Shown piece by piece: positions 1-64,000 of a stretch of 64,000 nucleotides of DNA (position 1 is its first letter; every line of letters starts with the position of its first letter). The DNA comes from Klebsiella phage K64-1: the sequence record AB897757.1; one strand, 5' to 3'. Below the pieces are notes generated by a model. That model made no database searches. It had not been told where the DNA came from and was given only the letters and a program-made list of their open reading frames with translations. A program made the translations under genes and the position numbers.

Positions 1-195
1 AATCAATAAAGATAAAATCGTATCAATTAAAATTCTGGTATGTAATACAAATACAAATACATTTGAATACATAAAATCAGATTTTGTTATAAATGAATTT
101 ATTTGTTCTTTATTCAATGCTACCTGTCTTGTTGATAGTGTTGAGGGTTACAGCAGAATAACACGAGTACATTGTAAATTAATAGTAGGTATGTA

Positions 196-468
196 ATGCA
201 AAAATATGAATTTGACTCAGTACATATCATCATAAGTACTTTATGGGATATGGATCCTTCTTATACCACAGTGTATTATAAAATATTCTCTTCAATACAA
301 GATGATTTTAATAAAAAATACGCACAAAAAGAAGTACTCATAGAATCGAATAATAAAGTAATAAAAGAAAAAATATCGTACTACATTATTTCCTTTGGTG
401 TATTGAAATTTATTTGTACAAATACATTTAGTAGACAATACTTCAGCGACAGGTGTCAATTATTATGA
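196..468 (+). CDS. hypothetical small protein, member of a tandem paralog family with an (I/E)EYLxxKY / DDFxxKY motif
   Basis: ORF of 90 aa. It shares 'IQDDFNKKYAQK' with the 'LQDDFDSKYNG' of the next ORF. Confidence 0.35.
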   Translation: MQKYEFDSVHIIISTLWDMDPSYTTVYYKIFSSIQDDFNKKYAQKEVLIESNNKVIKEKISYYIISFGVLKFICTNTFSRQYFSDRCQLL

Positions 469-764
469 CTAAAGAAGAATATATGAAAGTTTTGTTCATT
501 AAAGAAATTTTTGTCCAAATGGTATTGGGTACTGATTATTTGTACAAAAATGCATTCATTAACATTCTTGAAGTACTACAAGATGATTTTGATTCAAAGT
601 ATAATGGAATGAAAATAAATTACAAAACATATAATCAGGATTATATTAAAATTATCAAAAAATATACAATTAATTTAAGTTCTGTAAATTTTGAAACTGC
701 ACTTGGAATGAGGTTTAAACATTTTGATTATTATTTGATTCCTATGGGATTTAAAGATGAATAA
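453..764 (+). CDS. hypothetical protein, EYLxxKY-family paralog
   Basis: ORF of 103 aa with motif 'LEVLQDDFDSKYNG'. It overlaps the upstream ORF by 16 nt. Confidence 0.4.
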   Translation: MSIIMTKEEYMKVLFIKEIFVQMVLGTDYLYKNAFINILEVLQDDFDSKYNGMKINYKTYNQDYIKIIKKYTINLSSVNFETALGMRFKHFDYYLIPMGFKDE

Positions 765-1054
765 ATTCGAATACCAATCAATACAATTAATTAAAGAGTA
801 TTCAAATTCTTTACACAGTTCTTTAATTTTTAAAAATAATAATTATTCCACTAAAATTTGTGATATAATTAATAATATAAATGTATATCTAAAGAATTTT
901 CTACAAAATATAAGAATAAAAATATAAAAACCGATGTAGATGTTTTTGTAATAGTTGGTTTCATTATACAACAAGATTTATGTGTTGTAAAATCACTAGC
1001 GAATAGTACTAATTATTTCTTTAATTGTAAATCCCTTATAGAAGGTGAACTTTT

Positions 1055-1393
1055 GTGAATAAACCAAACATTTATCTGGAATTTGATAACAACATAAAGC
1101 AAGTTAATATGTTGAGATCAATTTTAAGAGATTGTTATATAGAAGCATATTACTACAAGAACTGGAATACTAAAATGTATTCTAATACATTATATTACTC
1201 ATTCAATGAATATTTAGATTACATTTCAGAAGAATTCAATGAAAAATATAATTCAATTGTACTTACCTACAATTCAAAAGAACATGTACTGAATAATATA
1301 GAAATGAGTTTGAAATTTATCACATTACATTTATCCAGTTCAGAATCACCAACGACAATTATTATTCATCCTTCATATCTGGATAAAATATAA
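1055..1393 (+). CDS. hypothetical protein, EYLxxKY-family paralog
   Basis: ORF of 112 aa with a GTG start and motif 'NEYLDYISEEFNEKYNS'. Confidence 0.4.
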   Translation: MNKPNIYLEFDNNIKQVNMLRSILRDCYIEAYYYKNWNTKMYSNTLYYSFNEYLDYISEEFNEKYNSIVLTYNSKEHVLNNIEMSLKFITLHLSSSESPTTIIIHPSYLDKI

Positions 1394-1596
1394 TGAATGA
1401 TTTGGATTCACTGTTGTGGTATACTTTATCTGTTCTTTCATTTGAACGTGATAAACACAAAGTACGAGCTTCTAAAAATCCAGACATATTACAGAAAAAG
1501 AAAGAATACGCATTAGTGTATTCTTTGGAAAAATCATTTATTTCTATGCATCTGGAATACAGAGAATACATAACATCAAATGGTATTAAAAAATGA
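1393..1596 (+). CDS. hypothetical small protein
   Basis: ORF of 67 aa, apparently translationally coupled to its neighbours through an ATGA overlap. Confidence 0.3.
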   Translation: MNDLDSLLWYTLSVLSFERDKHKVRASKNPDILQKKKEYALVYSLEKSFISMHLEYREYITSNGIKK

Positions 1597-1928
1597 AATA
1601 TAAATCCATAGTACACAAAAGATTTAAGTCAATATATTACACGGAAATTAATGTTCATAAAAAAGTAAAAGGTATTGATTTTTATATTGATAAAGTATAT
1701 CTGGATTATGATGTAGTTACTAATACATTCGAATGTACAGACCTCTTTGATTCAATACCAGTACCTAACTTGGCTGAATTGAGTGAAGAAGAAGAATTTC
1801 AGTACTCATTAGTATATGAAGATATATGGGGATTTAAATGGGATTATTATCGAATGGTGTCTTATCAAAAAGCACTAATATCCTCTATAAAAAAACAAAA
1901 TTACTTATTAATTAATCTGGAATATTAA
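1593..1928 (+). CDS. short member of the FQYST-motif paralog family
   Basis: ORF of 111 aa containing 'SEEEEFQYSLVYEDI'. Confidence 0.45.
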   Translation: MKYKSIVHKRFKSIYYTEINVHKKVKGIDFYIDKVYLDYDVVTNTFECTDLFDSIPVPNLAELSEEEEFQYSLVYEDIWGFKWDYYRMVSYQKALISSIKKQNYLLINLEY

Positions 1929-1929
1929 T

Positions 1930-2463
1930 ATGCAAAACAAGTACAATTATAATGACCCCGAATTTGCTACACTCGCATATGATATAGCAAAAATGGTAAA
2001 AGACTTAAAGGAATGTGCTATTGGTACTAAGGATATCAGCACTGTAATGAATACCGATGTAAATTTTAAGAAGGAATTACAGGTAACTGATTCGACAAAT
2101 CCATTGGCTGCATTCAAGAATTGTGTGGTAAATTACTATGGTGTAGTACAATGTAACATCGGATATAAATCCCACGAATGTAATATAGTAACTTTTGATG
2201 CATATGGAAATCTCCATGAAATTGATATTTATAAGGGTCAAAAATTAATCATTAAATTCATGGATAGATATCAATGTAGCATATCATATCATTTCGAATT
2301 ACCAAAAATTGATGGTGCATTCATTGATAATTATGATGCTTATATTTTTCAGTTAAGCACTACAAATGAATATTACAGTATCATTGATTTTGTACTTAGA
2401 ATGAAAATGAAATTCCAGAGTAATTTGTACTTAAAAGGAAGTATCCTTGATCTGGTGTTATAA
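1930..2463 (+). CDS. FQYST-motif family paralog
   Basis: ORF of 177 aa containing 'DAYIFQLSTTNEYYSIIDFV'. Confidence 0.45.
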   Translation: MQNKYNYNDPEFATLAYDIAKMVKDLKECAIGTKDISTVMNTDVNFKKELQVTDSTNPLAAFKNCVVNYYGVVQCNIGYKSHECNIVTFDAYGNLHEIDIYKGQKLIIKFMDRYQCSISYHFELPKIDGAFIDNYDAYIFQLSTTNEYYSIIDFVLRMKMKFQSNLYLKGSILDLVL

Positions 2464-2468
2464 AATAT

Positions 2469-2648
2469 ATGAAAATTTTAACAAAAGAAGAAGTACAAAA
2501 ACGATTAATTGTGCATGAAGATTATAAAACAATGCAAAGATTTTTTGAGATTCGTTTGTTGAATTTTATTGGTACTGATTATCAGAATAATTGTGTAAAT
2601 TTTTATATAAAAATGCTTCGATCTGAAATTAAACTAAAATTAAAATGA
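2469..2648 (+). CDS. small protein of the (L/F)xGT(N/D)(F/Y)Q family; not in the supplied ORF track (59 aa)
   Basis: My translation is MKILTKEEVQKRLIVHEDYKTMQRFFEIRLLNFIGTDYQNNCVNFYIKMLRSEIKLKLK. It shares the 'LNFIGTDYQ' motif with ORFs 4649, 4842, 5038 and 6582. Confidence 0.4.
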   Translation: MKILTKEEVQKRLIVHEDYKTMQRFFEIRLLNFIGTDYQNNCVNFYIKMLRSEIKLKLK

Positions 2649-3009: not shown

Positions 3010-3022
3010 TTTATTTGAATCG

Positions 3023-5036: not shown

Positions 5037-5037
5037 T

Positions 5038-8117: not shown

Positions 8118-8639
8118 ATGAAATCAATTTATACTGAAAGTATTAAAATCATTAATGACATTGATGATTTCTTTAAATATGTAAATTCAAATTCTTATTA
8201 TGCACTTCATAATTTGAATATACTAATTTTTGATCATCCAGGTTCTGTTATTTCTGCATTTGAACCTAAAAATTTTTATCAAATCTGTTTAATTAGAGAT
8301 AATGTCCAGGAATCAATTTTTAAGGTATCATTGAATACAAGATATGAATACTGGAACGAATCAAAAATGTTCTATTTCGACGCGAGCAGAAATGAATTTT
8401 CAATATGTGAAAAAACAAAAATACAAAACACTGTTGATATTTTGGAATATGATAACAATATAGAAGAGTTAGCATTCCAGTACAGTACTGAAGTACAACT
8501 GGAATTTGTTCCTGTTTGTGTATTGGCTTCATACTTAAAGAAAAATCACGACCCGAAATATCCATTATTTAAACTGATACTCAATGATGTTGATTTTTTA
8601 TTAAAACGATTCAAGGAAATAGAAGATTATGATTGGTAA
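8118..8639 (+). CDS. FQYST-motif family paralog
   Basis: ORF of 173 aa containing 'IEELAFQYSTEVQLEFVPVCVLASYLKKNHD'. Confidence 0.55.
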   Translation: MKSIYTESIKIINDIDDFFKYVNSNSYYALHNLNILIFDHPGSVISAFEPKNFYQICLIRDNVQESIFKVSLNTRYEYWNESKMFYFDASRNEFSICEKTKIQNTVDILEYDNNIEELAFQYSTEVQLEFVPVCVLASYLKKNHDPKYPLFKLILNDVDFLLKRFKEIEDYDW

Positions 8640-9601: not shown

Positions 9602-10163
9602 TCACGATAGTCAATTTTTTTACGAAAAAATAACTAATAGTATAGAATTATTAAAAAATATAGTCACTTATTTAAATCAAAATGATATGGAATATGTTGC
9701 TCATAAAACTGGCGATTTGTATTTTTATATTACAAATGAAAACCCTCGTATTATGTCATTCCATACTGGTGAATATTCTTTTATGGATTTTTATACCAGT
9801 ACAGAAAAGAAAGATGGTAGAAATTCAGTAGACATATTCAATAATAAAAAGAAAACGTGTATAGATTTTAATATACTACAAAATACTGATTCTTTTTTTC
9901 TCTCAGATTCCAGAAATGGTGCAGCGAATGTAATTGATGCGTCAAAAATAATCGAATTGCCTATAATTAAAGTTCAAACAGAAGAAGAAAGATTTCAGTA
10001 CAGTACTGTGTATAATGATATTGAATTGCGTAGTATTGAATTGTATTATAAATTTATGAAAGAACAATTGTATTTTTACGTTACATTAGATGGTGTTGAA
10101 GAAATTCAAACTGTACTTCAAACAATACATAATGATTTACCAAAATATATAAGGAAAAAATAA
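9540..10163 (+). CDS. FQYST-motif family paralog (the true start is probably ATG at 9572)
   Basis: ORF containing 'TEEERFQYSTVYNDIELRSIELYYKFMKEQ'. Confidence 0.55.
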   Translation: MKKPKKYMRDIMTSNTNPLIDHDSQFFYEKITNSIELLKNIVTYLNQNDMEYVAHKTGDLYFYITNENPRIMSFHTGEYSFMDFYTSTEKKDGRNSVDIFNNKKKTCIDFNILQNTDSFFLSDSRNGAANVIDASKIIELPIIKVQTEEERFQYSTVYNDIELRSIELYYKFMKEQLYFYVTLDGVEEIQTVLQTIHNDLPKYIRKK

Positions 10164-10660
10164 TGAATTGTGAATATAAAAAATCTAAACATATTACAGA
10201 TTCTTTGGTAAAGTTAATCAAATCAATACTGAACGGTGAAGTCGATGAACGACTAAACTATGATGACAGTGATGACATTATTAATGTTACATTAAAATCC
10301 AACAAAAAGAGTTATAGGAATTTATTTTCTACTGGGTGGTATTATAGTGAGTACTTACTTGAAGACAACTCTTCAATGGGATATCCAGAAACCCATTATT
10401 TTGCTTTTGACCCAAATGATAGTTCTCTTGTTGTTACTATTCGACAATGTAATGGTAAAAGAACAAGAGAGAAACTTAGTACAACTGGACTTAATATAGA
10501 TACAGAAGAAGAGTGGTTCCAGTATAGTACTTTATATAATGATAATGAATTATTTTCTATTATGTTATGGTGTGCATTTAAGAAAGAAAACTTCCCATCA
10601 TGTTTAGTCGAATTTTCAGAATTTTTCAAATATTTGGAAGAAACAAATGCTATTATCTGA
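10163..10660 (+). CDS. FQYST-motif family paralog
   Basis: ORF of 165 aa containing 'TEEEWFQYSTLYNDNELFSIMLWCAFKKENF'. Confidence 0.55.
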   Translation: MNCEYKKSKHITDSLVKLIKSILNGEVDERLNYDDSDDIINVTLKSNKKSYRNLFSTGWYYSEYLLEDNSSMGYPETHYFAFDPNDSSLVVTIRQCNGKRTREKLSTTGLNIDTEEEWFQYSTLYNDNELFSIMLWCAFKKENFPSCLVEFSEFFKYLEETNAII

Positions 10661-15143: not shown

Positions 15144-15721
15144 ATGCACAGTACTGTGATAAATTACTGAATGCATTGATTACTATACAAAAGAATATAA
15201 AAAAAGAAAAGAGTATTCAAATTTACTATAATGATAGTTATATTCTTGTACAATGCAACCCAGATGGTAATTATGTAGAGTTCAGTTTAAAGAAAGAAGA
15301 TGTTCATGATTGTATTAGTATTGATTTGCATGAAGCAACACCGCATCAAAGTTTAAAAAATATTATTAAAGCATATAAAAGAACTACTTATGCATTTGAC
15401 ACGTTAGTTCACAGATATAAAACATTTTATTGTATGTTTGATACAGACGAATATGATTTCAATTTAGTAGGATTTGATGAAAACATCATTAGCATTCCTT
15501 ATGATTTTGATGATGAATTATATTTTCAGTACAGTACTTTATATAGTTTACCACCACAGAGTGATCTTGAGCTTCACAAAAGTATTCATAAAAAATGCAA
15601 AAATGAACTACCAAATAAAAGTGTAGTTAGAATTTCATATCTATCCATCGAATTAGATCAACAAGAAATGGATGAAATTCTGGAATCTTTGTATTCATTG
15701 GTTCCTGTGTTTAAGCATTAA
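15131..15721 (+). CDS. FQYST-motif family paralog
   Basis: ORF of 196 aa containing 'DDELYFQYSTLYSLPPQSDLELHKSIHKK'. Confidence 0.5.
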   Translation: MPKLDAQYCDKLLNALITIQKNIKKEKSIQIYYNDSYILVQCNPDGNYVEFSLKKEDVHDCISIDLHEATPHQSLKNIIKAYKRTTYAFDTLVHRYKTFYCMFDTDEYDFNLVGFDENIISIPYDFDDELYFQYSTLYSLPPQSDLELHKSIHKKCKNELPNKSVVRISYLSIELDQQEMDEILESLYSLVPVFKH

Positions 15722-24150: not shown

Positions 24151-24762
24151 ATGAATTTAGAAGAACAGAAAAAAATCGCTTCAAGAAAACAAAAGAAAGG
24201 AATTGATATTAAGTACTTGAATAAGGAATTTCAAATAGTTCATAATCCAGATAGCTCTTTTTGTGGTTACAGAATACGAACAGAACAAAATACATTATCT
24301 AATATAAGCGAGTATGAAAATGGTACTGAAATAGGAATTATTCATTTCAGACCAACTCAAACTCCAACAATACTCGGAGCTAGATATAAACAATATTTTG
24401 AAGAGAGATATACCAATGGAAACATTTCTATTCATTATACATTTTATAAAAGTGTATTAATTGGTGAATACAAGAAATATGATTCAGATGGGAATTTAAC
24501 ACTAAGAGAATTCTATGATGGAAATGGTGATTGTACTAAAGAAATAAAAGAATTCATTGGTTTTAATGGAACCGATGAGGAATTTATGCATTACGAATTT
24601 AAAGAAGATGAAGAATTTAATATATTAATGAGATATGGTTCTCACTTCAAATTAATAAAAGAAATAAAGTTTAAAACAGAATATTTTAATTACGTATATG
24701 AAAATTGTCTTAAACGTGGTTATATACGTAACGATTTATTGAATAAGAAACACAAACACTGA
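24151..24762 (+). CDS. hypothetical protein, possibly MORN/YwqK-like repeats
   Basis: ORF of 203 aa with repeated Y-x-N-G/D-G-N segments. Confidence 0.45.
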   Translation: MNLEEQKKIASRKQKKGIDIKYLNKEFQIVHNPDSSFCGYRIRTEQNTLSNISEYENGTEIGIIHFRPTQTPTILGARYKQYFEERYTNGNISIHYTFYKSVLIGEYKKYDSDGNLTLREFYDGNGDCTKEIKEFIGFNGTDEEFMHYEFKEDEEFNILMRYGSHFKLIKEIKFKTEYFNYVYENCLKRGYIRNDLLNKKHKH

Positions 24763-24786: not shown

Positions 24787-25305
24787 ATGGAAAAGAAGAA
24801 AAACAAACACGCGGTACACTTCAGTACAAGAAAAAATGATCTATGGACAACACCAAAACCATTGTTTGATAAACTTAATGCTTTGTGGAATTTTACAGTA
24901 GATGTTGCTTGTACTCATGAAACTGCTTTGTGTCTTAAACATTACACACCAGAAGATGATGGTTTATCACAGGACTGGAGCAATGAAACATTTTGGTTAA
25001 ATCCACCTTATAGTGATTTATCTCCGTGGTTATCAAAAAGTGTTGAAGACTATAACAGAGGTGCTACTGGTTTGATTTTGGTTCCAGCAAGAACTGATAC
25101 CAGAGCTTTTCAGAATTTTGCTTCTCCTTTTTGTGATGCTATGTGTTTTATAAAAGGAAGGCTTAAATTTGGTAATCCATTAAAACCAGATGATAAACTA
25201 TCATCAGCACCATTTCCTTCTTGTATTATAGTACTGGATAAGAATCTAACACAAGCGAAAATAGATTGCCTAAAATCATTAGGAAACACTATGGTTAACA
25301 TATGA
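24787..25305 (+). CDS. dam: phage-type DNA N6-adenine methyltransferase (Dam, PF05869-like)
   Basis: ORF of 172 aa containing 'WTTPKPLFDKLNALWNFTVDVACT...FWLNPPYSDLSPWL...LVPARTDT'. The NPPY catalytic motif and the order of conserved blocks match the small phage Dam family. Confidence 0.65.
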   Translation: MEKKKNKHAVHFSTRKNDLWTTPKPLFDKLNALWNFTVDVACTHETALCLKHYTPEDDGLSQDWSNETFWLNPPYSDLSPWLSKSVEDYNRGATGLILVPARTDTRAFQNFASPFCDAMCFIKGRLKFGNPLKPDDKLSSAPFPSCIIVLDKNLTQAKIDCLKSLGNTMVNI

Positions 25306-28176: not shown

Positions 28177-28445
28177 TGAACAAACAATTATTATACTGTA
28201 AAGTGGTTTATTACTTGACTAATTCAGTACTGAATATGAATAACACACATTTTAACTATTCACTATGTATTAGAAGTATTTTAGATAACATAGAAGATGA
28301 ACTAAATGTGTTATATACTGGAAAAACATTCACAAAAAACAATATCCGACACAAATGTAATGGTATTGTTATAACATATGGGCGTATATTTGCTTTATAC
28401 GGTATACGTTACACTTGCTATTTTCATAGGGCTAAATTTAAATGA
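28176..28445 (+). CDS. hypothetical protein; tandem paralog of 27907..28176
   Basis: See the previous feature. Confidence 0.4.
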   Translation: MNKQLLYCKVVYYLTNSVLNMNNTHFNYSLCIRSILDNIEDELNVLYTGKTFTKNNIRHKCNGIVITYGRIFALYGIRYTCYFHRAKFK

Positions 28446-29059
28446 AAACAGATTATTCAAAACTAAGAACAAAACTTTATGGAATTATAGAGGGGCTATC
28501 TCTAATCGATCCAAAGTACTATGAATTGCGTCGTTTACTTGCATTCGCCGAACAATATCATTGTAATACACGAAAAGATGGTTCTGAAGAATTCTCTCAT
28601 CAATTACAAATGCTTGGATTGGCTCTTACGCTTCATGAATCGATGTGTAAGCCGTTTGAAGTATACATGGCAATTGTATCTCATGATTTAATCGAAGACT
28701 ATCCAGAAGCTTCTGAAACGCTTGAGATGTTATTCCCTGATGTAATCCAATATAGTCGCAAACTGGCTAAATTTAAAGATTCAAATACTGATGAAGATTC
28801 GTACTATGGATACTTTAATCAGCTTTCTAATTGTCAAGTATGTTCAATTGTAAAACTCGTAGATAGAGTGCACAATTTGAGTACCGCACCTGGTGTATTC
28901 AGTACTGAAAAAATTATAAGTTATTGTGATGAAACTGATAAGTATTTCTTTGATATGATAAAAAAATCCAAAGTTATGTTCAATCAACGTTCAGCATATG
29001 AAGTTCTAAAATTCATGTTGAATACCGAAGTCAGTACTATCAGGAATTTATTAAAATGA
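28442..29059 (+). CDS. HD-domain phosphohydrolase, SpoT/Mesh1-like (candidate (p)ppGpp or signalling-nucleotide hydrolase)
   Basis: ORF of 205 aa with 'FSHQLQMLGLALTL' and 'AIVSHDLIEDY', giving the H...HD...D metal-binding pattern of the RelA/SpoT hydrolase HD domain. Confidence 0.6.
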   Translation: MKTDYSKLRTKLYGIIEGLSLIDPKYYELRRLLAFAEQYHCNTRKDGSEEFSHQLQMLGLALTLHESMCKPFEVYMAIVSHDLIEDYPEASETLEMLFPDVIQYSRKLAKFKDSNTDEDSYYGYFNQLSNCQVCSIVKLVDRVHNLSTAPGVFSTEKIISYCDETDKYFFDMIKKSKVMFNQRSAYEVLKFMLNTEVSTIRNLLK

Positions 29060-30106: not shown

Positions 30107-30139
30107 GTCCAGTACAATATAAGTACTGGACATTTTTTT
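30107..30139 (+). terminator. rho-independent terminator built from the CAGTAC/GTACTG motif
   Basis: Sequence gtccagtac-aatataa-gtactggac followed by attttttt. Confidence 0.6.
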
Positions 30140-30149
30140 AAGGTAAAAA

Positions 30150-43370: not shown

Positions 43371-44195
43371 ATGAAAGTAACAGGAAAGGGAAATCAGAAG
43401 GATGACCTATTTCATATAGATAAGTTTTTAAATACTGGTAAATTTTTACCAGGAACAATATTTTCTCGTTCAACTACTAGACAAAAGAACAATAAAGGTG
43501 TAATATCATATCCATATTGGAATTATAAATGCCCCAAATGTTCACATGATGAATTCGTTGAACATGGTTTATGTTCTGGTGTATTCGAAGGTGAATGTCA
43601 AAAACTAAAATTAGGAAAACGTAATTGTAGATGTGCTCCGACATATAGGTGGACACAAGAACAACGAGAATATCAAATACAAAAAGAAATCGATGAACGT
43701 GGTCTAGAAAATTATTTTATTGGATGGGTTGATCCTGAAGGATATAAAAATAATGGAAGTAAAATTATAATTGGATGTATAAATTCAGATGATGATGGTA
43801 CCCAACATAAAAGTTATACTATAGCAATAAATGATTTTCTCCATGGACATAAAGGTTGTGCTAAATGTGCCGGTCAAACACAAAAACATGCATATATAAA
43901 TGTTGTATATAATGAAAATAAACCAGTAGCTATAAAATTTGGAATTGCAAATGCACCACACATAAGGATTGAATTTCAAAATAGTAAAAATTTATATAAG
44001 ATGGTTCAAACGCACATTTACAAATTTTTCAGTACTGAACAATGTAAAGATGCTGAACGATATTGTAAATCAATTTATAAAAATGTTTTAACAAAAGAAC
44101 AACTATTTGATGGTTATACTGAAACCACACTATTGGAAAATATAGAAAATATTATTCAAATCTATGAAAAATATGGTGGAATCAGAACAAAATAA
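43371..44195 (+). CDS. Cys/His-rich (zinc-finger-like) protein of unknown function
   Basis: ORF of 274 aa with two similar modules, 'YKCPKCSHDEFVEHGLCSGVFEGECQ' and 'IGCINSDDDGTQHKS...HGHKGCAKCAG'. The RBS is aaggatttgtATG. Confidence 0.5.
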   Translation: MKVTGKGNQKDDLFHIDKFLNTGKFLPGTIFSRSTTRQKNNKGVISYPYWNYKCPKCSHDEFVEHGLCSGVFEGECQKLKLGKRNCRCAPTYRWTQEQREYQIQKEIDERGLENYFIGWVDPEGYKNNGSKIIIGCINSDDDGTQHKSYTIAINDFLHGHKGCAKCAGQTQKHAYINVVYNENKPVAIKFGIANAPHIRIEFQNSKNLYKMVQTHIYKFFSTEQCKDAERYCKSIYKNVLTKEQLFDGYTETTLLENIENIIQIYEKYGGIRTK

Positions 44196-49258: not shown

Positions 49259-50323
49259 ATGAAAGAAAAAGTTTATGTATATATTGGACGTTTCCAAATT
49301 CCACATATTGGTCATGAAGAAGTCCTCAAACATGCGATCAAAATTGCAGATCGTGTTATCATTCAGGTCGGTTCAAGTGAACTGGCTCGTGATCCAAAAA
49401 ATCCATTCACGTTTGAAGAACGTAAGTCAGTACTAGAAGAAATTACAAAACGTGTAGCTCAAGATGAATGGAATAAAGGTCGAACTGTTAAAATCGATAT
49501 TATGCCATTACATGATTATGTATATGATAATAATGCATGGCTAAAAGAAGTACAGGATAATGTTAAAACATGTACTTCAAGTAATGATATTACTATTACC
49601 GGTTGTCGTAAAAATGGTGATACTAGTACTGAATATCTTAACTATTTTCCTCAATGGAAAAATGACTTCATTAACGAAGTACAAAGTAATGCAAAGGGTA
49701 CTATTAGTAGTACTGAACTACGCGAAGCTTTCTTTGTCTCTGGTAAAGTTCCAACTGAATTTGTTTCAAAAGAAACAACAGAATTTCTAGAAAATTTTGT
49801 CAGTACTAAACCGGATGTATTCGATAATCTTATTAAAGAATATGAATTCATTAATCGTTATATTGAACAAATGAAAGAAGCACTACCTTATGATATTCCA
49901 TTTTTAACAGCAGATAACATCGTCGTCAGTTGTGGTCACGTTCTTCTTATTCGTAGAAGAACATATCCAGGAAAAGGATTATTAGCTATGCCGGGTGGAT
50001 ATTTTCAATGTTGGGATGATAAAGACCAGATTGATACTGCAATTCGTGAATTAAAAGAAGAAACTAAAATCGATGTACCTGAAAAAGTGCTTCGTGGTAA
50101 TATTGTTAGTGCAACAGACTTTACTGACATGAATAGAAGTCTTCGCTGGCGAATTCTAACTAAAGCTGTTCATATTCAATTACCTGACGTCACTCTACCT
50201 AAAGTTAAAGGAAGTGATGATGCAGAAAAAGCTCAGTGGATTCCACTAAGCGATGTAGAAAAATATCGTGATCAGTTCTTTGAGGACCATTATTCTATTT
50301 TGGCTTCAGTACTGAAACTATAA
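49259..50323 (+). CDS. natV: bifunctional NMN adenylyltransferase / Nudix ADP-ribose pyrophosphatase (NatV/NadM-like)
   Basis: ORF of 354 aa. The N-terminus 'IGRFQIPHIGHEEVL' carries the HxGH nucleotidyltransferase motif. The C-terminus 'GGYFQCWDDKDQIDTAIRELKEETKI' is the Nudix box Gx5Ex7REUxEExGU. Confidence 0.85.
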   Translation: MKEKVYVYIGRFQIPHIGHEEVLKHAIKIADRVIIQVGSSELARDPKNPFTFEERKSVLEEITKRVAQDEWNKGRTVKIDIMPLHDYVYDNNAWLKEVQDNVKTCTSSNDITITGCRKNGDTSTEYLNYFPQWKNDFINEVQSNAKGTISSTELREAFFVSGKVPTEFVSKETTEFLENFVSTKPDVFDNLIKEYEFINRYIEQMKEALPYDIPFLTADNIVVSCGHVLLIRRRTYPGKGLLAMPGGYFQCWDDKDQIDTAIRELKEETKIDVPEKVLRGNIVSATDFTDMNRSLRWRILTKAVHIQLPDVTLPKVKGSDDAEKAQWIPLSDVEKYRDQFFEDHYSILASVLKL

Positions 50324-52456: not shown

Positions 52457-53194
52457 ATGATTAGTACTAAATTCATTAAAAAAGCTGGTGATAAAAGATT
52501 ACTAATCATTTCTGGAAATGGATTGTCAATGGATAGTGGTTTTGACTTATATGACATTCCTGATAATTTTCAGATAAATGATGTATGTAATATTGCCAGT
52601 TTAGGTACAAAATATCACGTAGTTCATTCTTATTATAATACTCTTAGAGTTAAATTAAAAGATATTGAACCAAACGAAATGCATTACTATATTAAATCAT
52701 TACAAGATGAGTATGGTGATAACTTTTTACACATGACCAGTAATGTAGATGATTTATATACAAGAATTGGTGGCACTGAATTAAAATTACATGGTAATAT
52801 TAAAGAGGTTATAGAAAACTACACCGCTGATGGTTCTGAAATAGAAATAAAAGAATTAGGTTATGAACCATATATTCCATGTAGTGGTATTTTTTCTAAA
52901 CCAGGTGTTACATTAATTGGTGAGTTCCATAGTTATTTTTATGGATATAAAATCCCAATTTATGAAGAACGAAATGAAATACTAAAATCATTAAATGAAA
53001 ATGATACTGTAGTAGTAATTGGAAGTTCTGATTCAGTACTGAAATGGAGCCATTTAATAAATGAGAAATGTTACACAGTACTAATCAATATAAGAAAAAA
53101 TGAAAACGATCATCGTTTCAATGAACGAATTTATAAATCTTGTTCCAAATCTGTATTAGATTTATCTGGAATAATTTCAAAAAGGATGGTATAG
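52457..53194 (+). CDS. Sir2 (sirtuin/CobB)-family protein, divergent
   Basis: ORF of 245 aa. 'LLIISGNGLSMDSGFDLYD' aligns to the sirtuin 'VLTGAGISAESGIPTFR' block. 'PNEMHYYIKSLQDEYGDNFLHMTSNVDDLYTRIGGTELKLHGNI' aligns to CobB '[45 protein letters not shown]', which contains the catalytic His. 'VVVIGSSDSV' aligns to 'IAIGTSGHV'. The zinc ribbon is absent. Confidence 0.65.
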   Translation: MISTKFIKKAGDKRLLIISGNGLSMDSGFDLYDIPDNFQINDVCNIASLGTKYHVVHSYYNTLRVKLKDIEPNEMHYYIKSLQDEYGDNFLHMTSNVDDLYTRIGGTELKLHGNIKEVIENYTADGSEIEIKELGYEPYIPCSGIFSKPGVTLIGEFHSYFYGYKIPIYEERNEILKSLNENDTVVVIGSSDSVLKWSHLINEKCYTVLINIRKNENDHRFNERIYKSCSKSVLDLSGIISKRMV

Positions 53195-54474: not shown

Positions 54475-55914
54475 ATGAAAAAATATACTATTGACACTAA
54501 CGTAGTACTTTCTGATCCAAATGCAATCACTGCGTTTGATGGTACATCTGTTATTCTTCCATTTAAAGTACTAGAAGAACTAGATTCTATTAAAAGTCGC
54601 AATGTTGACGTATCTCGTGATGCACGTTTTGCAATCCGAAATATTGATGCAATTCTAGCTGATGCAACTTATGAAGAGATTAGAAATACTGGTGTTGATA
54701 TTTCAAAAGTACATACGAATATGAGTGCTTCCAGTAAATTATTTGTAATTACCGATGAAGAAGCAGAAGCTTTAATTCGTACACAAGATAAAGAAGAAAA
54801 ATTAGTCACTCTTCTAAAAAGTACAGTTCCTGATGATAAAATCATTTTAGTAGCACTAGCAACTGATTCAGTACTAGTTACAAAAGATATCAATATGCGT
54901 CTAAAAGCACTATCTTATGGTGTTGAGGTTCAAGATTATCGTCATGATGTAGTACTAGAAGATAGTGATCTTATTCATGTCGGTCAACATCATCTTGACA
55001 TTGATTTTTGGGAAATGTTTAAAGATATTCCTGATGCAGAAATTAAATCCAATCAAATTGGTAGAAAATTGTATCACTATATCAGTACTGAACTATTAAA
55101 AGATTCGTTACCAACAAATATGTATATTGGTGATTATTTGTATGATAATTCTGATGTATTGTTTGTATATGATGGTATTGTTGAGCTTGATGATTCAGAA
55201 GGTAATGCAATTGAAGGTGAGTTTTTTGTATTTCAAGATGTAGGACAATCGGTTGCTTTACGTGCTAAAGTTTGGGATATTAAATCAAAAAATATCCAAC
55301 AATCATTAGCAATTAATAGTATTCTCGATCCTGACGTACATCTTACTGTACTTCTTGGTTCTGCTGGTACTGGTAAAACACTAATTACAATTGCAAGTGC
55401 ACTTGAATTAGTACTAGAGAAGAAAAAATATTCTCGTATTATTTTCTCAAAAACTCAAGATTCACAGTTTGAAGATATTGGTTTCCTACCAGGATCAGAA
55501 AGTGAAAAAGTAATTCCTTTCTGTGGTGCAGCAATTGATGCATTAGAGTTTTTACATCGTGATGACCGCGATCCACAAGGTAGTATTGAAGAAATTATGA
55601 AACGTAATGTTATTCAATTTAAAGCATTGAACTTCGTTCGTGGTCGTAGTTTCACTGATACAATTCTTGTTATCGACGAATTCCAAAATATTTCACCCGC
55701 ACAAGCGAAGACAATCTTGACACGTGCTGGACAAAACTGTAAAGTAATCATTATGGGAAACCTATCACAAATTGATAATAAATTTATTAGTGCAGTGAAT
55801 AGTGGTTTAACATATGTTACTGAAAAATTTAAAGATTGGTCCGGTTGTCGTATCATCGAGTTAGAAGGTGTTGTGCGTTCACCATTAGCCGAATTTGCTG
55901 AGAAAAATATGTAA
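54475..55914 (+). CDS. phoH: PhoH-family ATPase with an N-terminal PIN domain (PhoL/YlaK-type)
   Basis: ORF of 479 aa. The N-terminus 'KKYTIDTNVVLSDP' is a PIN-like D-rich start. The Walker A is 'LLGSAGTGKTLITIA' and the Walker B is 'ILVIDEFQN'. RBS is aaggaatatcttATG. Confidence 0.85.
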   Translation: MKKYTIDTNVVLSDPNAITAFDGTSVILPFKVLEELDSIKSRNVDVSRDARFAIRNIDAILADATYEEIRNTGVDISKVHTNMSASSKLFVITDEEAEALIRTQDKEEKLVTLLKSTVPDDKIILVALATDSVLVTKDINMRLKALSYGVEVQDYRHDVVLEDSDLIHVGQHHLDIDFWEMFKDIPDAEIKSNQIGRKLYHYISTELLKDSLPTNMYIGDYLYDNSDVLFVYDGIVELDDSEGNAIEGEFFVFQDVGQSVALRAKVWDIKSKNIQQSLAINSILDPDVHLTVLLGSAGTGKTLITIASALELVLEKKKYSRIIFSKTQDSQFEDIGFLPGSESEKVIPFCGAAIDALEFLHRDDRDPQGSIEEIMKRNVIQFKALNFVRGRSFTDTILVIDEFQNISPAQAKTILTRAGQNCKVIIMGNLSQIDNKFISAVNSGLTYVTEKFKDWSGCRIIELEGVVRSPLAEFAEKNM

Positions 55915-55921: not shown

Positions 55922-55950
55922 TTCGGTACTGAACAACACTCAGTACCGAA
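55922..55950 (+). terminator. terminator hairpin built from the GTACTG motif
   Basis: Sequence ttcggtactg-aacaacact-cagtaccgaa followed by atttaaaat. Confidence 0.5.
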
Positions 55951-57588: not shown

Positions 57589-58445
57589 ATCATATTACTG
57601 AAGAAAAAATTCTATATCACGCATTACATAATGGATCATTTACTTTACAAAGTTGTGATTATATTGGTCATACTCAGACATGTATTGATAATCTTTTGAA
57701 GTGTAAATTTCTTACATGGGAAACTAATAGTTTATGGAGTGATTATAAACATAATGATAGTTCTGAATATTATGACATAGCATTTCATCAGTATAAAATC
57801 ACCGAAACAGGTGAAGTTCGTTTAGCCATTTATCGTTTAGCTTATGCACATAAGAATCACAGAGATACTTCTAAACATGTGAAAAGGATGGAACAATTAA
57901 CAAAAGTATTGAAACAGTATTCTCTGGATATTGATAACTTCAAAAAGAATTGTACTAAAAATGAAGTGAAAGCAATTAATTATTATAAAGAAAACTATAA
58001 TAAAACGGTTGATATTGAAGAAGCGAAAGCTGTCGGTGATGCATTAAAACAAGCTATTCATCCAGTATTCAGTACTGAAAAAATTCAATACAAAAATTCT
58101 CATCTAAATGATATTGATTTCGGTGATGCAGTACTTAATAATATGTTCCAAATGAGTTCTATGCTTGGTGAAAAAGGTTATGATAAATCCAGAACATGGG
58201 ATTATGTTCTTCGTAAAATTAATGAAGAATTAGGTGAAATGACACTTGAAATGAATGTAGCAGATGGGTTATCATATAAAGAAGCAGGGAAAGATGGCGT
58301 AAAAGGTGAAGCCGTTGATTTAGCAATTTGTGCTATGGATATGTTTGCGTTAGAATGTCCAGGTATGAGTGCTGAAGAAATTGAGCGTGAATTTTTAACA
58401 TACATGAACATCAAACTAGCTAAATGGAGAAAATCAATACAATGA
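57585..58445 (+). CDS. hypothetical protein
   Basis: ORF of 286 aa. Confidence 0.5.
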   Translation: MNHITEEKILYHALHNGSFTLQSCDYIGHTQTCIDNLLKCKFLTWETNSLWSDYKHNDSSEYYDIAFHQYKITETGEVRLAIYRLAYAHKNHRDTSKHVKRMEQLTKVLKQYSLDIDNFKKNCTKNEVKAINYYKENYNKTVDIEEAKAVGDALKQAIHPVFSTEKIQYKNSHLNDIDFGDAVLNNMFQMSSMLGEKGYDKSRTWDYVLRKINEELGEMTLEMNVADGLSYKEAGKDGVKGEAVDLAICAMDMFALECPGMSAEEIEREFLTYMNIKLAKWRKSIQ

Positions 58446-59129: not shown

Positions 59130-60332
59130 ATGAAACTTTGTAAGCATTGCCAGAAACCAAAATTCAAACATCAACGTGAAACACTGAATTGTCCAAGTCC
59201 AACTCGTTCATTGGCTGCGAATTTTAATAGTACAACTGTATATGATGAATATGAATCCGATCCAGTACATTATGCTATTGCACAAGTACAATTGAAAGCT
59301 GATATTGCTGAAATTACTGCTGGTCTTGATGAACTTCTTGCTAAAGGTGATATTAACGAACAATCATATAAAATGAATTTAGCAAATGCAACTGCCAATC
59401 TTACTCGTATTGCTGAAAATAGTAAGCGACCAGAAATTACAGAATCTAATTCAGTACTGTATGTTTCTTTTAACGATGTGGTGTATTTTTATGATGCACA
59501 ATGGGAAGGAAATGCAGTACTAGAAGGTGAAAAAGCAGTAGAAGATTTATATTTTTCTAATAAATTCAAAGAATATTATGATGCTGGTATTGTACCAGTA
59601 TTAGAAGTGCTAGATAATGAAAGCACTGAAATGATTAAAGTAATTTATAATGAAGAACGTGCTGAATTTATTTCTGATATTAGTCGTGATGAACATTTGA
59701 AAGAAAGAGATACAAAACAAGAAGAAGTATCTTTATCTGATTTGAATAATGATGATTTTGTACTTCCATTGCATGATAAACAATGGGTACTAAATACTAT
59801 TCGAAAAAATTCTGACGATGATTGTGATGTTGAAGAACTTGAATGTGCATTGAAAAGCTGTGATGGATCTGTTGTTCTTGGTAAACCAGATACAGAAAAC
59901 GATGGAACTTATCTAATGCTTGGTATGAAAACCAACGATGGTTTCCTTGAAAATGATTACTGTCTTCTTGATAGCATTTTGCTTAAAGAATGGAGTGTAC
60001 TTGAAAATTCAGGGTTGATTGAAATTGGTACTTTTGAAAGCCACATTGACATTGATGAAAGCAAAAATAAAGGCATTACTACTTTTATGTCTGAAGTAAT
60101 TGCACGTTCATTATTCAGTACTGAAGCATTGGATATCAAAAGTACTTCTGATTGTAAAGAATTCTTGAAATCAGAATACAATGTACAAAAAGCAAAACGC
60201 ATCAAGAAAGAAAAATGGGGTAAAATTGAGTACCGAATCTTTGAAGATGATAATGGTGAACAGTATACTATTGTCACTTACTGTGATAAGTTGATTTCAC
60301 ATTATCCATTTGCTTACAATGAGGATTATTAA
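59130..60332 (+). CDS. hypothetical protein
   Basis: ORF of 400 aa with an N-terminal 'CKHCQKP...NCPSP' Cys cluster. Confidence 0.5.
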   Translation: MKLCKHCQKPKFKHQRETLNCPSPTRSLAANFNSTTVYDEYESDPVHYAIAQVQLKADIAEITAGLDELLAKGDINEQSYKMNLANATANLTRIAENSKRPEITESNSVLYVSFNDVVYFYDAQWEGNAVLEGEKAVEDLYFSNKFKEYYDAGIVPVLEVLDNESTEMIKVIYNEERAEFISDISRDEHLKERDTKQEEVSLSDLNNDDFVLPLHDKQWVLNTIRKNSDDDCDVEELECALKSCDGSVVLGKPDTENDGTYLMLGMKTNDGFLENDYCLLDSILLKEWSVLENSGLIEIGTFESHIDIDESKNKGITTFMSEVIARSLFSTEALDIKSTSDCKEFLKSEYNVQKAKRIKKEKWGKIEYRIFEDDNGEQYTIVTYCDKLISHYPFAYNEDY

Positions 60333-60550: not shown

Positions 60551-60569
60551 TTAAATAATTTTTAACAAA

Positions 60570-60700
60570 CAAGAAAGTACTGTCGCCGTGCATCTGGGTA
60601 AAATCAGTATAAGTCCGTAAAGCACAATGCCAATACTCAACCATCTCCCTACTCCTTGAGATCTACCAAAGTTGAGGGTGGTAGTACTTTCACCTTTTTA
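60570..60700 (+). ncRNA. candidate structured small RNA
   Basis: About 150 bp, ORF-free and GC-richer. A long-range inverted repeat gaaagtact (60574-60582) / agtactttc (60683-60691) closes the structure and is followed by acctttttt. Confidence 0.25.
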
Positions 60701-60701
60701 G

Positions 60702-60947
60702 ATGAGAAATATTATGATTTTATTAATTATTACAGTACTGTTAGGATTTTTTAATTGTTTGATTTATTTAAGAATTGAAAAGAAAGAAGGATATTGCTTT
60801 CATAGTACAAAAGATGGTAAATTAGTTTCAATGTTTAGTATAGAATCTCCATCAATTTGTAAATTCTTTATTCTTTTACAATTCATCCCGTTTGTTAATA
60901 TTGTTTTCGCACTTTTATATTTCGTAGATATTCTTAATGGACATTAA
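60702..60947 (+). CDS. small membrane protein
   Basis: ORF of 81 aa with two hydrophobic segments. Confidence 0.4.
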   Translation: MRNIMILLIITVLLGFFNCLIYLRIEKKEGYCFHSTKDGKLVSMFSIESPSICKFFILLQFIPFVNIVFALLYFVDILNGH

Positions 60948-60949
60948 TA

Positions 60950-61971: not shown

Positions 61972-62141
61972 AAAATATTTTTAAAAAAGAATATGATGGT
62001 GAAAGCCTTTGTGATGTTCAACGAGATGTTGTTGAAGCATTCAGTACAGTATTCAATCCAGAAATGATTGATATCCCAGTCGATGAATACGGATTTCAGG
62101 AAGGTACATTTGTTGTAAGTATTAAATGGAAGCCAGAATAA
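61968..62141 (+). CDS. hypothetical small protein (57 aa); not in the track
   Basis: ATGA overlap with the upstream gene. The product begins MKNIFKKEYDGESLCDVQRD.... Confidence 0.3.
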   Translation: MKNIFKKEYDGESLCDVQRDVVEAFSTVFNPEMIDIPVDEYGFQEGTFVVSIKWKPE

Positions 62142-62267
62142 TGCGTGATCTTATTATGTTCTTTTCTGCAATCATAGGATTATGTACTTATTATTTTTCC
62201 AATCATTATATTATAGCTATGGTATTTGCTATTATATATATTGCACTTTACAGTACTGACGACGAAT

Positions 62268-62291
62268 AAAAGCACCCCAGCGGTGCTTTTT
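62268..62291 (+). terminator. rho-independent terminator
   Basis: Sequence aaagcacc-ccagc-ggtgcttttt. Confidence 0.55.
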
Positions 62292-62350
62292 GTATTTGTA
62301 CAAAATATAATCTAAGTGACTTTTTATTGATTTAAATCAAGAATAAAATC

Positions 62351-62368
62351 ACCTTTTAGTGATATAAT
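62351..62368 (+). promoter_or_regulatory. promoter with extended -10 (TAGTGATATAAT) upstream of nrdD
   Basis: TG at 62360-62361 and TATAAT at 62363-62368. Confidence 0.4.
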
Positions 62369-62424
62369 ATGTTACGTAGCATTTAAATAAATCTACCACA
62401 TAATAAAAAAATCAAGGAAGAAAA

Positions 62425-64000
62425 ATGAATTCAAATAAATTATATGAAGATATTGAAAATTTTATTAATAATACAAATAAAGATATTACTACTGAAAATG
62501 CTAATAAAGATGCCAAAGTAGTTAATACACATAGAGATTTATTTGCTGGTATCCTTTCTAAACATTACGCCCAAGATACTATCCCAGAAGAATTTATTAA
62601 ATGGCACAATGATGGTTATGGACACTGCCACGATTTAGATTACTGGATCTCACCACTAACAAATTGCTGCCTTATTAATTATCCAGATATGCTTAGAAAT
62701 GGTTTTAAAATTGGTAGTGCTAACATTGAAGAACCAAAAAGTTTTTCTGTGGCTTGTACGGTACTAACACAGATTGTGCAAGCGGTTGCAAGTTCACAAT
62801 ATGGTGGACAATCATTAGCTCACATTGACAAATATTTAGAACCATATGTTCAAATGTCATGGAATAAACTATTAGAAAAACAAAAGAAATATAATTTAAG
62901 TACCGAATTCATTGAAGACGAATTAAAAAAAGAAGTTTATGATGGGTGTCAAACATTTTTATATCAATTAAACAGTACTGTGTCCGTGTCAGGTCAAACC
63001 CCTTTCATATCTATTAGTTTAGGTTTAAGTACTACTAAATTTGGACGTTTAATTACTGAACAATATTTAAAAGTTCATGAAAAAGGTTTAGGTAAAGATG
63101 GCATTACTCCAGTATTTCCGAAAGTTATTTTCTTTTTAGAAGATGGTATTAATACTAATAGTACTGATCCAAATTATGATTTAAAACAACAAGCATTACA
63201 TTGTAGTTCTAAAAGAATTTATCCTGATTTCGTTAGTGTTACATTGAATAAAGAAACCACAGGTAGTACTTCTGAAGCTGTTACTCCAATGGGTTGTCGT
63301 TCATTCCTTTCCAAATGGATAAATGAAGATGGTGAAGAGCAATATAATGGCCGTTGTAATTTAGGGGTGGCATCAATCAACCTACCGTTAATTGCTCTTG
63401 AAAGTACGTCAGACGCCGTTTTCTTTGACAAGTTACACCATCACATGGACATGGCATACCGCTTCTTATCACTTCGTGTAGAGCGTTTAAAAGACACAAA
63501 AGCCCGACAGAATCCAGTACTGTACATGTACGGAGCCTTAGCTCGTTTAGATCCAGATGAGACTATTGAGCAACTATTTTACAATGGTAGAAGTTCCATT
63601 AGTATTGGGTATGTTGGTTTATCTGAATGTTCTGAAATTCTTAAAGGAAAAATAGACAAAGATTTTGGATTAAAAGTACTAAAATATATGCAAATGAAAT
63701 GCAATCAATATAAAGAAGAAACTAATATCGCATATAGTTTATATGGAACACCAGCCGAGAGTTTGTGTTATAAATTTGCAAAAGCTATAAATGAGAAATA
63801 CCCCTCTGTATTGAATAGAGATTACATTAGTAATTCATTCCATTATCCAGTTCATTATGATATTTCAATTTTTGATAAATTTCAATATGAAAGTTTATTT
63901 GGAAATATCAGTTCAGGTGGTAATATTAGTTATGTTGAAACTCCAAATCTTTCTAATAATTTAAAAGCATTAGAAACAATAGTTGATTATGCTAGTACGA
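62425..64000 (+). CDS. nrdD: anaerobic ribonucleoside-triphosphate reductase (class III, NrdD), N-terminal ~525 codons; continues beyond the window
   Basis: RBS aaggaag. 'NKDITTENANKDAKVVNTHRDLFAGILSKH', 'NCCLINYPDMLRNGFKIGSANIEEPKSF', 'VASSQYGGQS', 'GITPVFPKV', 'DPNYDLKQQALHCSSKRIYPDF' and 'PMGCRSFLS' are colinear with T4 NrdD (NKDLLNENANKDSRVFPTQRDLMAGIVSKH ... NCCLVDLKGMLENGFKLGNAQIETPKSI ... VASHQYGGTT ... GITPIFPKL ... DPNYDIKQLALECASKRMYPDI ... PMGCRSFLS). There is no stop before 64000. Confidence 0.9.
   Translation, partial: MNSNKLYEDIENFINNTNKDITTENANKDAKVVNTHRDLFAGILSKHYAQDTIPEEFIKWHNDGYGHCHDLDYWISPLTNCCLINYPDMLRNGFKIGSANIEEPKSFSVACTVLTQIVQAVASSQYGGQSLAHIDKYLEPYVQMSWNKLLEKQKKYNLSTEFIEDELKKEVYDGCQTFLYQLNSTVSVSGQTPFISISLGLSTTKFGRLITEQYLKVHEKGLGKDGITPVFPKVIFFLEDGINTNSTDPNYDLKQQALHCSSKRIYPDFVSVTLNKETTGSTSEAVTPMGCRSFLSKWINEDGEEQYNGRCNLGVASINLPLIALESTSDAVFFDKLHHHMDMAYRFLSLRVERLKDTKARQNPVLYMYGALARLDPDETIEQLFYNGRSSISIGYVGLSECSEILKGKIDKDFGLKVLKYMQMKCNQYKEETNIAYSLYGTPAESLCYKFAKAINEKYPSVLNRDYISNSFHYPVHYDISIFDKFQYESLFGNISSGGNISYVETPNLSNNLKALETIVDYAST

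Follow-up and report, generated by a model that had tools for sequence, protein, structure and literature searches.

Chi (GCTGGTGG) and the Neisseria and Haemophilus DNA uptake sequences are asymmetric, orientation-dependent words of cellular genomes, whose readers are RecBCD for Chi and ComP or other uptake machinery for the uptake sequences. TF1 of Bacillus phage SPO1 is a DNA-binding protein with preferred sites in early promoters, and it recognizes hydroxymethyluracil DNA rather than a strict palindrome. Phage genomes that are unmodified are expected to lose short palindromes. SlmA binds the consensus GT-R-AG-Y / R-CT-Y-AC, in which G1, T2, A4 and G5 are required (PMC3020112). HIP1 (GCGATCGC) is a hyper-abundant palindrome of cyanobacteria that is conserved inside open reading frames (ORFs) as well as between them and has been linked to orphan methylases, its function being unknown (PMC5861425, PMC4390886). 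Here we examine the palindrome AGTACT in a 64,000-nucleotide stretch of Klebsiella phage K64-1 (AB897757.1), called the window throughout, for which a sequence-only reading had proposed a genome-wide excess of this hexamer. We find that the excess is real, and we tentatively read AGTACT, in its full form TTCAGTACTGAA, as a double-stranded DNA recognition palindrome maintained by selection and bound by a symmetric dimeric factor, which would make it a phage counterpart of HIP1.

The window comes from a RaK2-group Klebsiella jumbo phage (genus Alcyoneusvirus). Over 7 kb its identity is 98.8% with phage Muenster and 99.2% with RaK2, and its G+C content is 29.5%. It contains small early and middle genes, a large paralog array, genes for RNA ligase, polynucleotide kinase, DNA ligase, ClpP and dCMP deaminase, and the start of nrdD, which runs past the window end. 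Whole-genome figures are from OU509535, a complete 347-kb genome near-identical to the window. The relatives sampled were Asteriusvirus, Eneladusvirus, Mimasvirus and XacN1 (25 kb), with stretches of 25–50 kb each for four related genera. The host sample was 50 kb of E. coli K-12, and the T4-like comparison was 50 kb of Enterobacter phage EcL22g. Searches of full-text literature, in a collection without most subscription journals, found no published account of AGTACT enrichment in these phages, and the only mention of AGTACT methylation that they returned concerns a giant eukaryotic virus.

Enrichment of AGTACT at the DNA level

An exact count gave 165 copies of AGTACT in the window, about 2.6 per kb, compared with 21.0 expected from base composition and 13.4 under an order-1 Markov model. 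The sequence-only reading had estimated about 200 copies against an expectation of about 20, a roughly 10-fold excess; this total was too high, and the enrichment stands at about 8-fold. Its sample counts of 7 (8.4–10.7 kb), 8 (40.0–42.5 kb) and about 10 (25.4–26.8 kb) correspond to actual counts of 8, 7 and 6, the third having been overestimated. Higher-order Markov models expect 79.6 (order 3) and 157.8 (order 4) copies. The order-4 value falls near the observed one because AGTAC (299) and GTACT (256) are themselves enriched about 4.6-fold and combine independently around GTAC (485 vs 170). Shuffling synonymous codons inside each gene yielded 61.1 ± 5.7 copies (maximum 80 in 300 shuffles) and permuting codons yielded 36.6 ± 4.3. 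Both of these nulls are conservative, since the motif itself shapes codon usage, and the observed count exceeds both, so the proposed enrichment goes beyond what codon-aware models produce.

Extended forms were also frequent in the window, with 33 copies of CAGTACTG (0.5 expected), 11 of TCAGTACTGA and 131 of CAGTAC (8.2 expected). Among the 64 palindromic hexamers AGTACT was by a wide margin the most over-represented, the second being GGTACC at 2.5-fold, and many others stood at zero. The whole genome gave the same picture: AGTACT occurs 945 times in OU509535 vs 117 expected (8-fold), CAGTACTG 246 times vs 3, and TTCAGTACTGAA 31 times vs 0.04.

A per-2-kb histogram showed an even density along the window. 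The enrichment is not limited to the paralog array, as AGTACT occurs at 2.70 per kb outside it and 2.08 per kb inside, and non-coding density is the same as coding density. Genes on the plus strand carry 73, 21 and 50 copies in the three frames and 16 further copies lie beyond the called genes, about 7 of them in nrdD; the earlier description of a motif present in every reading frame and between genes was therefore correct. Along OU509535 the density is 2–3 per kb over most of the genome, rises to 7–8 per kb across 20 kb of small early genes that lie immediately upstream of the window, and is lowest (0.8–1.6 per kb) at 130–150 kb, a part with higher GC and reversed strand skew. Regular spacing, of the kind that priming sites or a maximum-gap constraint would impose, was considered and rejected: the gaps are Poisson, and the largest lie in the lower-density 130–142 kb stretch of OU509535.

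We conclude that the enrichment is a real, selection-type signal at the level of DNA rather than of peptides or codons. The positive DNA-level selection proposed from the sequence alone is borne out by the survival of the excess under codon-aware nulls and its presence in all frames and in intergenic DNA, together with the symmetric flanks, the shift in dipeptide usage and a conservation between genera about 3-fold above background, which are described below.

Symmetric flanks and graded variants

The consensus around AGTACT is symmetric, TTC-AGTACT-GAA or TTCAGTACTGAA (12 bp), with ttcAGTACTgaa as a shorter form of the consensus. C is found at position −1 in 44–49% of sites and G at +1 in 49–50%, whereas G at −1 and C at +1 are disfavored. 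Left and right flanks are independent, their joint frequency equaling the product of the two, and the abundance of the hexamer likewise equals AGTAC x GTACT / GTAC. Symmetric flanks and independent half-sites are what additive recognition by a dimer predicts.

One-off variants that retain G2 and C5 (AGTACA, AGTACC, GGTACT, TGTACT, AGCACT and AGTGCT) are enriched 2–4-fold, while the commonest decay products expected at G2/C5 in an AT-rich genome remain near 1.0–1.1-fold (AGTATT, 56 vs 53.9 expected; AATACT, 52 vs 47.2). This pattern looks like graded recognition rather than mutational debris. The coordinates of individual sites and associated elements in the window are given in Table 1.

Table 1. 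Motif copies and associated elements in the window.
Feature	Position	Strand	Details
AGTACT copies	1..64000		165 copies, consensus ttcAGTACTgaa; 33 are CAGTACTG
TTCCAGTACAGTACT, encoding FQYST of the paralog array	8475..8489	+	equivalents at 9993-10007, 10517-10531, 15524-15538
T1-Dam-type N6-adenine DNA methyltransferase, candidate writer	24787..25305	+	Pfam PF05869, E = 3e-27
Longest perfect palindrome centered on the motif in the window	28222..28235		ATTCAGTACTGAAT, 14 bp, intragenic
Perfect 12-bp TTCAGTACTGAA, encoding F-S-T-E in the HD-domain phosphohydrolase gene	28898..28909		12 bp
Intrinsic-terminator-like hairpin, arms are motif halves	30107..30146	+	GTCCAGTAC-AATATAA-GTACTGGAC then T7; split inverted repeat at 30110
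Further TTCAGTACTGAA copies	44028-44039, 50305-50316, 53032-53043, 58068-58079, 60114-60125		exact match
Inverted repeat 3' of the gene ending at 55914	55922..55950	+	TTCGGTACTG-N9-CAGTACCGAA; GTACTG/CAGTAC parts, without full AGTACT
AGTACT pair in a predicted intergenic RNA fold	60576-60581, 60683-60688	+	closing helix; fold not significant

Codon choice and protein sequence

Ser-Thr, Val-Leu and Gln-Tyr dipeptides are over-used 1.6–2.1-fold in the window (159 vs 75 expected, 161 vs 99 and 66 vs 36, respectively), but the reversed Thr-Ser, Leu-Val and Tyr-Gln (59, 92 and 34) are not. AGTACT encodes 74 of the 159 Ser-Thr dipeptides, of which 23 are expected by codon usage. In the other two frames, nnAGTACTn encodes 53 of 120 X-Val-Leu (11.7 expected) and nAGTACTnn encodes 21 of 110 [QKE]-Tyr-[FLSYCW] (3.4 expected). 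The joint skew in codon choice and in dipeptides indicates that a DNA signal drives both codon choice and amino acid sequence, and the recurrence of FSTE, QYST, SVL and EVL fragments follows from it. The peptides VFSTEKII, DFSTEYII, MLSTEIEV and FFSTEQCK, which the earlier reading had singled out in unrelated proteins, are all encoded over ttcAGTACTgaa-type sites, and the FQYST motif, which it had described as entangled with AGTACT, is encoded by TTYCAGTAYAGTACT in four paralogs.

The RaK2 tRNA cluster contains eight tRNA genes by ARAGORN vs five annotated, among them Thr(UGU) and the AGU-reading Ser(GCU). This set fits a raised demand for the codons made by the motif, yet it is typical of AT-rich phages too.

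Conservation in jumbo phages and avoidance elsewhere

A 5–10-fold excess of AGTACT is also found in Asteriusvirus (E. coli), Eneladusvirus (Erwinia) and Mimasvirus (Cronobacter GAP32), so that four genera including Alcyoneusvirus have it. The core hexamer is constant over these genera, but the flanks of Eneladusvirus are A(−1)/T(+1), still symmetric, as opposed to C/G elsewhere; Mimasvirus (53 sites) has mixed flanks, A at −1 with G at +1.

Individual sites are conserved as well. Compared with KP13-7 (94% identity, 39 kb aligned), 104 of 115 AGTACT sites are kept (90%) vs 81% of all hexamers, with 11 sites present only in the window and 21 only in KP13-7. In codon alignments of 25 window ORFs with Asteriusvirus (14.1 kb, 63% nucleotide identity), 15 of 41 AGTACT sites (37%) fall at the same alignment column, vs 11.5% of all hexamers and 0.14 expected under random placement. 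The shared columns could reflect purifying selection on the sites themselves, or an identical pressure exerted on the same peptide contexts; whichever the cause, the pressure on AGTACT is old and continuing.

Outside this group the hexamer is avoided. Neither XacN1, a jumbo phage at a greater distance (0 vs 6.3 expected), nor the T4-like EcL22g (0 vs 14.7) has a copy in its sampled stretch, and the hexamer occurs 3 times vs 11.6 expected in E. coli K-12 (0.26-fold), which makes the motif about 45-fold denser on jumbo phage DNA than in the 50-kb host sample. Other enterobacterial phages thus purge the very site that the RaK2 group has accumulated. The XacN1 stretch also lacks GATC (0 vs 97 expected).

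Since other phages purge AGTACT, a phage with 945 ScaI sites needs some protection, and AGTACT or GTAC might be the target of a phage orphan methyltransferase whose mark protects against ScaI-, RsaI- or KpnI-type restriction and times early promoters in the manner of Dam-regulated ones, as proposed for HIP1. The window encodes a candidate writer of the PF05869 family, for which 37 phage records hold matches at 60–80% identity and Eneladusvirus one at 46%, and RaK2 has a C5-cytosine methyltransferase (ORF194) that is conserved at 63% in related coliphages. However, characterized PF05869 enzymes act, to our knowledge, on GATC. An enzyme with all-or-none recognition also does not predict the graded one-off variants, and protection would account for tolerance of the site, not for its 8-fold excess. 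RaK2 DNA has been reported to resist methylation-sensitive enzymes, but the cytosine methylation reported is at CpG (PMC3622015) and AGTACT contains no CpG. HIP1, for its part, has been tied to two orphan methylases (PMC4390886). The link drawn earlier to the N6-adenine methyltransferase at 24787 is circumstantial only. A temperate phage family of about 33 kb, described below, shows the motif with no homolog of either RaK2 enzyme detected in its recovered parts. Weighing these points, we consider methylation an unlikely explanation of the excess. Base hypermodification, another of the earlier suggestions, is also unlikely, because ten ordinary enzymes cut the DNA of a related Asteriusvirus in the predicted way (PMC13070987). 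An ORF of 203 amino acids (24151–24762) lies directly upstream of the Dam-type gene, annotated in Muenster as DNA-binding and AP2/I-HmuI-like and without a Pfam match.

Purging of other palindromes and possible biased mutation

The purging of other short palindromes from these genomes is extreme. GCGC is missing from the window (0 vs 29 expected), from the 347-kb genome (0 vs 224) and from the sampled stretches of four related genera, and the 347-kb genome also lacks CTTAAG (0 vs 117) as well as CAGCTG, CTGCAG, AGGCCT and GAGCTC (each 0 vs 26). Behind these absences is either restriction avoidance of an extreme kind or immunity to a GCGC nuclease that the phage encodes. AGTACT, at 8 times its expectation, does not follow the pattern of an avoided restriction target. 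We considered a mechanistic tie between the absence of GCGC and the excess of AGTACT and rejected it: all 19 of 19 AGTACT-rich metagenomic loci lack GCGC, but they represent two lineages only, and GCGC-free metagenomic loci without the motif are also common (8 of 50).

Such purging nevertheless bears on the possibility that the palindrome has no function and is a by-product of biased mutation or repair, either very-short-patch-like or through decay of GCGC via GTGC or GCAC to GTAC, or of a codon or dipeptide preference. GTAC, GCAC and GTGC are above expectation where GCGC is missing, and both the random spacing of the sites and their turnover among close relatives (11 and 21 sites in the KP13-7 comparison) are what such a process might leave. 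A conversion source should be depleted, yet no single-substitution neighbor of AGTACT is depleted in that way; the low neighbors AGGACT and AGTCCT track a general shortage of GGAC and GTCC, and the depletion of neighbors that Vsr-type repair would cause is not seen. The expected GCGC pool (224 genome-wide) is also far below the GTAC excess (about 1500), and after a change of GCGC to GTGC or GCAC a GCGC-specific methylase loses its site, so the second step would be undriven. Nor does such a process sit well with an enrichment that survives the synonymous shuffle and is equally strong in intergenic DNA, with the asymmetry of Ser-Thr over Thr-Ser, in which DNA drives protein, or with sites that are conserved above background and fixed in position in promoters. 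A functionless origin is accordingly very improbable.

Promoters and palindromes of the early region

In the RaK2 early region, which lies beyond the window, 105 of 168 AGTACT sites are intergenic. Of the 23 early promoters of the form TTGACA-N15-18-TATAAT, 18 have an AGTACT whose start, counted from the first T of TTGACA, is at +15 or one base away (at precisely +15 in 16 of them). The last T of this spacer copy together with the next G gives a TG immediately upstream of the −10 hexamer. A second copy is found at −5 or −7 in 10 of the 23, where its last T is, or adjoins, the first T of the −35 hexamer, as in aaaAGTACTTGACA-N9-cAGTACTGTATAAT. Pairs of AGTACT at exactly 20-bp spacing number 23 genome-wide, none of them in the window, and the fixed position relative to the −35 and −10 hexamers holds in the early region but not for the 165 window sites. 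Asteriusvirus early promoters have the same architecture (aaaAGTACTTGCAA-N9-cAGTACTGTATAAT) at about 67% nucleotide identity. The promoter copies thus occupy operator-like positions.

Upstream of the window, at 224.6–226.1 kb of RaK2, a 1.5-kb non-coding region opens the early block and holds about 20 copies of AGTACT, some in arrays of 10/20/20 bp, together with several Fur-box-like repeats (GATAATGATTCTCATT). This region could be regulatory or origin-like.

The motif is also the constant center of perfect palindromes of 16–24 bp in the early region, whose arms vary (GGGAATC, GGGTATC, AGAGATTCC), and several of these fall in the interval from a promoter to the next gene's ribosome-binding site. 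This arrangement would suit a role in RNA, with CAGUACUG as the apex of a hairpin (GUAC loop) or pairing from copy to copy, and acting as a processing, stability or small-RNA target in long plus-strand transcripts; almost all genes are on one strand. The motif builds terminator stems in the window, and those described earlier at 30107–30139 (GTCCAGTAC-N7-GTACTGGAC followed by T7) and 55922–55950 have the sequences claimed. A role in RNA is nevertheless hard to square with flanks that are symmetric despite one-sided transcription, with sites that, at −35 and in the spacer, lie upstream of transcription starts, and with lone intragenic copies, which are unable to form a stable hairpin. The sole candidate RNA in the window, a small RNA suggested by the sequence-only reading, does have two AGTACT copies that pair in its helix, but its fold at 60560–60705 is no better than that of shuffled sequences (z = −1.39) and it has no Rfam match; indeed, tRNA and Rfam scans of the whole window gave no match. 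We therefore rate recognition of the motif as RNA as very improbable. Packaging, replication and transcriptional pausing, also suggested earlier, found no specific support, given Poisson spacing and uniform position within genes.

An unrelated temperate phage family

A scan of IMG/VR for ATTCAGTACTGAAT, followed by a scan of bacterial genomes with the terminase found there, recovered a family of temperate phages of about 33 kb integrated in Leclercia, Phytobacter, Enterobacter and Escherichia sp., with incomplete coverage of the elements. Their genes run in the order small terminase, large terminase, portal, protease-capsid fusion and tail fiber, and their G+C content is about 40%, in hosts of 56–63% G+C where a junction was recovered. 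AGTACT occurs at 3–7 per kb, 276 times vs 25.5 expected in 79 kb (about 10-fold), and CAGTACTG occurs 85 times vs 1.0 expected. In one stretch, the signature stops sharply at the host junction, about 14 kb in. GCGC is almost absent, and the restriction-avoidance profile is the same as that of the jumbo phages. A prophage of Atlantibacter whose terminase is 45% identical to that of the family has the opposite pattern, with GTAC at 0.31-fold and GCGC at 1.7-fold. We looked in 22-kb stretches for an accessory gene common to all motif-positive small phages and missing from this motif-negative relative and found none, the core structural genes alone being common to all family members. Among nine accessory proteins of a small phage, the sole Pfam match was to DUF2971.

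One explanation of this recurrence is that a conserved Enterobacterales protein is recruited, titrated or activated by the loading of sites, for example SlmA, a Chi-like nuclease attenuator or a nucleoid protein not yet known. Two phage groups with common hosts and no detectable common genes are enriched in CAGTACTG, both with the same restriction-avoidance profile, and the host genome under-represents AGTACT (0.26-fold in 50 kb). Flank preference differs among phage genera, however, and the Atlantibacter relative of the small family avoids GTAC. Apart from SlmA, no known enterobacterial DNA-binding protein that we can name fits the motif. The resemblance to LexA and TrpR half-sites, which we considered and rejected, fails at the flanks, where A outnumbers T at +2 and CTAG is depleted. 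The SlmA site GTGAGTACTCAC is centered on AGTACT (PMC3020112), but SlmA requires G1, T2 and a purine at position 3, whereas the phage sites have T or A at position 1 and C at position 3 (44–49%, with purine in about 30%), and purines at −1 are depleted. Full SlmA-type sites number just 2 in 347 kb and 1 in the window, and we rejected the motif copies as SlmA-binding sites. A host reader of this kind seems doubtful to us.

A related reading treats AGTACT/CAGTACTG as a convergent ‘self’ signature of at least two unrelated enterobacterial phage lineages, read by one unrecognized factor, most plausibly a host protein or a defense or maintenance system that is exploited or disarmed by site saturation. 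We hold this to be possible, with some reserve. If true, it would be a new class of phage-host interaction through a genome-wide iterated palindrome, and a tractable model for the 30-year-old HIP1 problem.

The Chi octamer has 16 + 4 copies in OU509535 vs about 1.3 expected, and none in the window. We rejected it as a correlate of AGTACT: Chi is moderately enriched in motif-positive and motif-negative phages alike.

Discussion

The reading that we tentatively favor is of a recognition palindrome bound by a dimeric factor and kept by selection. From the statistics and placement of the sites we infer a protein reader, whether of phage or host origin, and the effect that its binding would have. 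Each copy would be a binding site for a factor that is strict at G2 and C5 and whose reading of the remaining positions is graded and additive. This factor may control early transcription in the jumbo phages from operator-like sites, where the spacer copy abuts and supplies the TG beside the −10 hexamer and a second copy often lies 20 bp upstream, overlapping the −35 hexamer. Hundreds of weakly selected intragenic copies would load the factor along the whole phage chromosome, and the motif copies could mark phage DNA at a density about 45-fold that on host DNA. AGTACT would then be kept by many weak selective effects.

Several observations weigh against this reading. The sequence statistics would look much alike for a methyltransferase target that something else reads. 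Of the positions available by synonymous change, only about 45% are occupied, so selection per site must be weak, with an undefined benefit. Inter-site gaps are Poisson-like (coefficient of variation 0.99–1.08) and show no architectural regularity at this short range, and placement within genes is uniform, without position bias. Between the jumbo phages and the 33-kb family we found no shared protein, BLASTP giving only short tail-fiber or patchy local matches and 68 profile HMMs (hidden Markov models) nothing, and the family has no 20-bp promoter-type AGTACT pairs; a phage-encoded reader would therefore have to have arisen twice or be too diverged to detect. Recurrence of the motif without shared genes favors a host-encoded reader or another common cause. 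On the other side, the drift of the flanks between genera and the wiring into promoters favor a co-evolving phage factor.

One palindrome at 8-fold excess amid extreme purging points to an undiscovered sequence-reading function, and there is a real chance that AGTACT hides a new mechanism. The excess has a measurable protein cost, is held in four genera and recurs in an unrelated prophage family. The facts that inform most lay out of reach of the sequence-only reading: the fixed place of the motif in early promoters of this genome, its conservation in four genera and its recurrence in those prophages. The system lends itself to experiment, since the phages can be cultured on E. coli and Klebsiella, the motif is a ScaI site and the early promoters are defined. 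Its study could reveal control of early transcription or DNA self-marking in a giant phage, and could offer a first grasp of the mechanism behind hyper-abundant palindromes such as HIP1. In practical terms, the motif distorts codon and dipeptide statistics and could serve as a k-mer signature for this phage group in metagenomes.

Comparison with known systems

The SlmA site resembles the phage motif in being a 12-bp palindrome with a central AGTACT, and SlmA is a dimeric helix-turn-helix protein present in the phage hosts. Like Chi and the uptake sequences, AGTACT is dense, genome-wide, under selection at the DNA level, often paired in terminators and marked by a density contrast between own and foreign DNA. 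Unlike them, it is palindromic with symmetric flanks and has no known reader, and only in its density contrast with the host does it resemble a self-marker. With the TF1 sites of SPO1 it shares a position over the −35 hexamer and spacer of strong early promoters, in pairs two helical turns apart, but it is also scattered about 900 times in coding DNA and has no known protein.

HIP1 and AGTACT alike are perfect palindromes of short length, with a many-fold excess that extends to all frames and to the DNA between genes. Each is more conserved from genome to genome than expected, an argument for selection over biased repair. Both occur in genomes that encode orphan methyltransferases, though no methylase has been demonstrated for the phage motif, and neither has an agreed function. 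The phage motif differs in sequence and is 6 bp long (up to 12 bp with its flanks), and it is found in virulent jumbo phages and a temperate family where HIP1 is found in cellular chromosomes. Its spacing is Poisson at short range; for HIP1, a 10–90-kb periodicity has been reported. In over-representation, occurrence within and between ORFs, and conservation, AGTACT has the statistical profile of a HIP1-type element, and to this profile the phages add copies built into sigma70-type early promoters at fixed positions.

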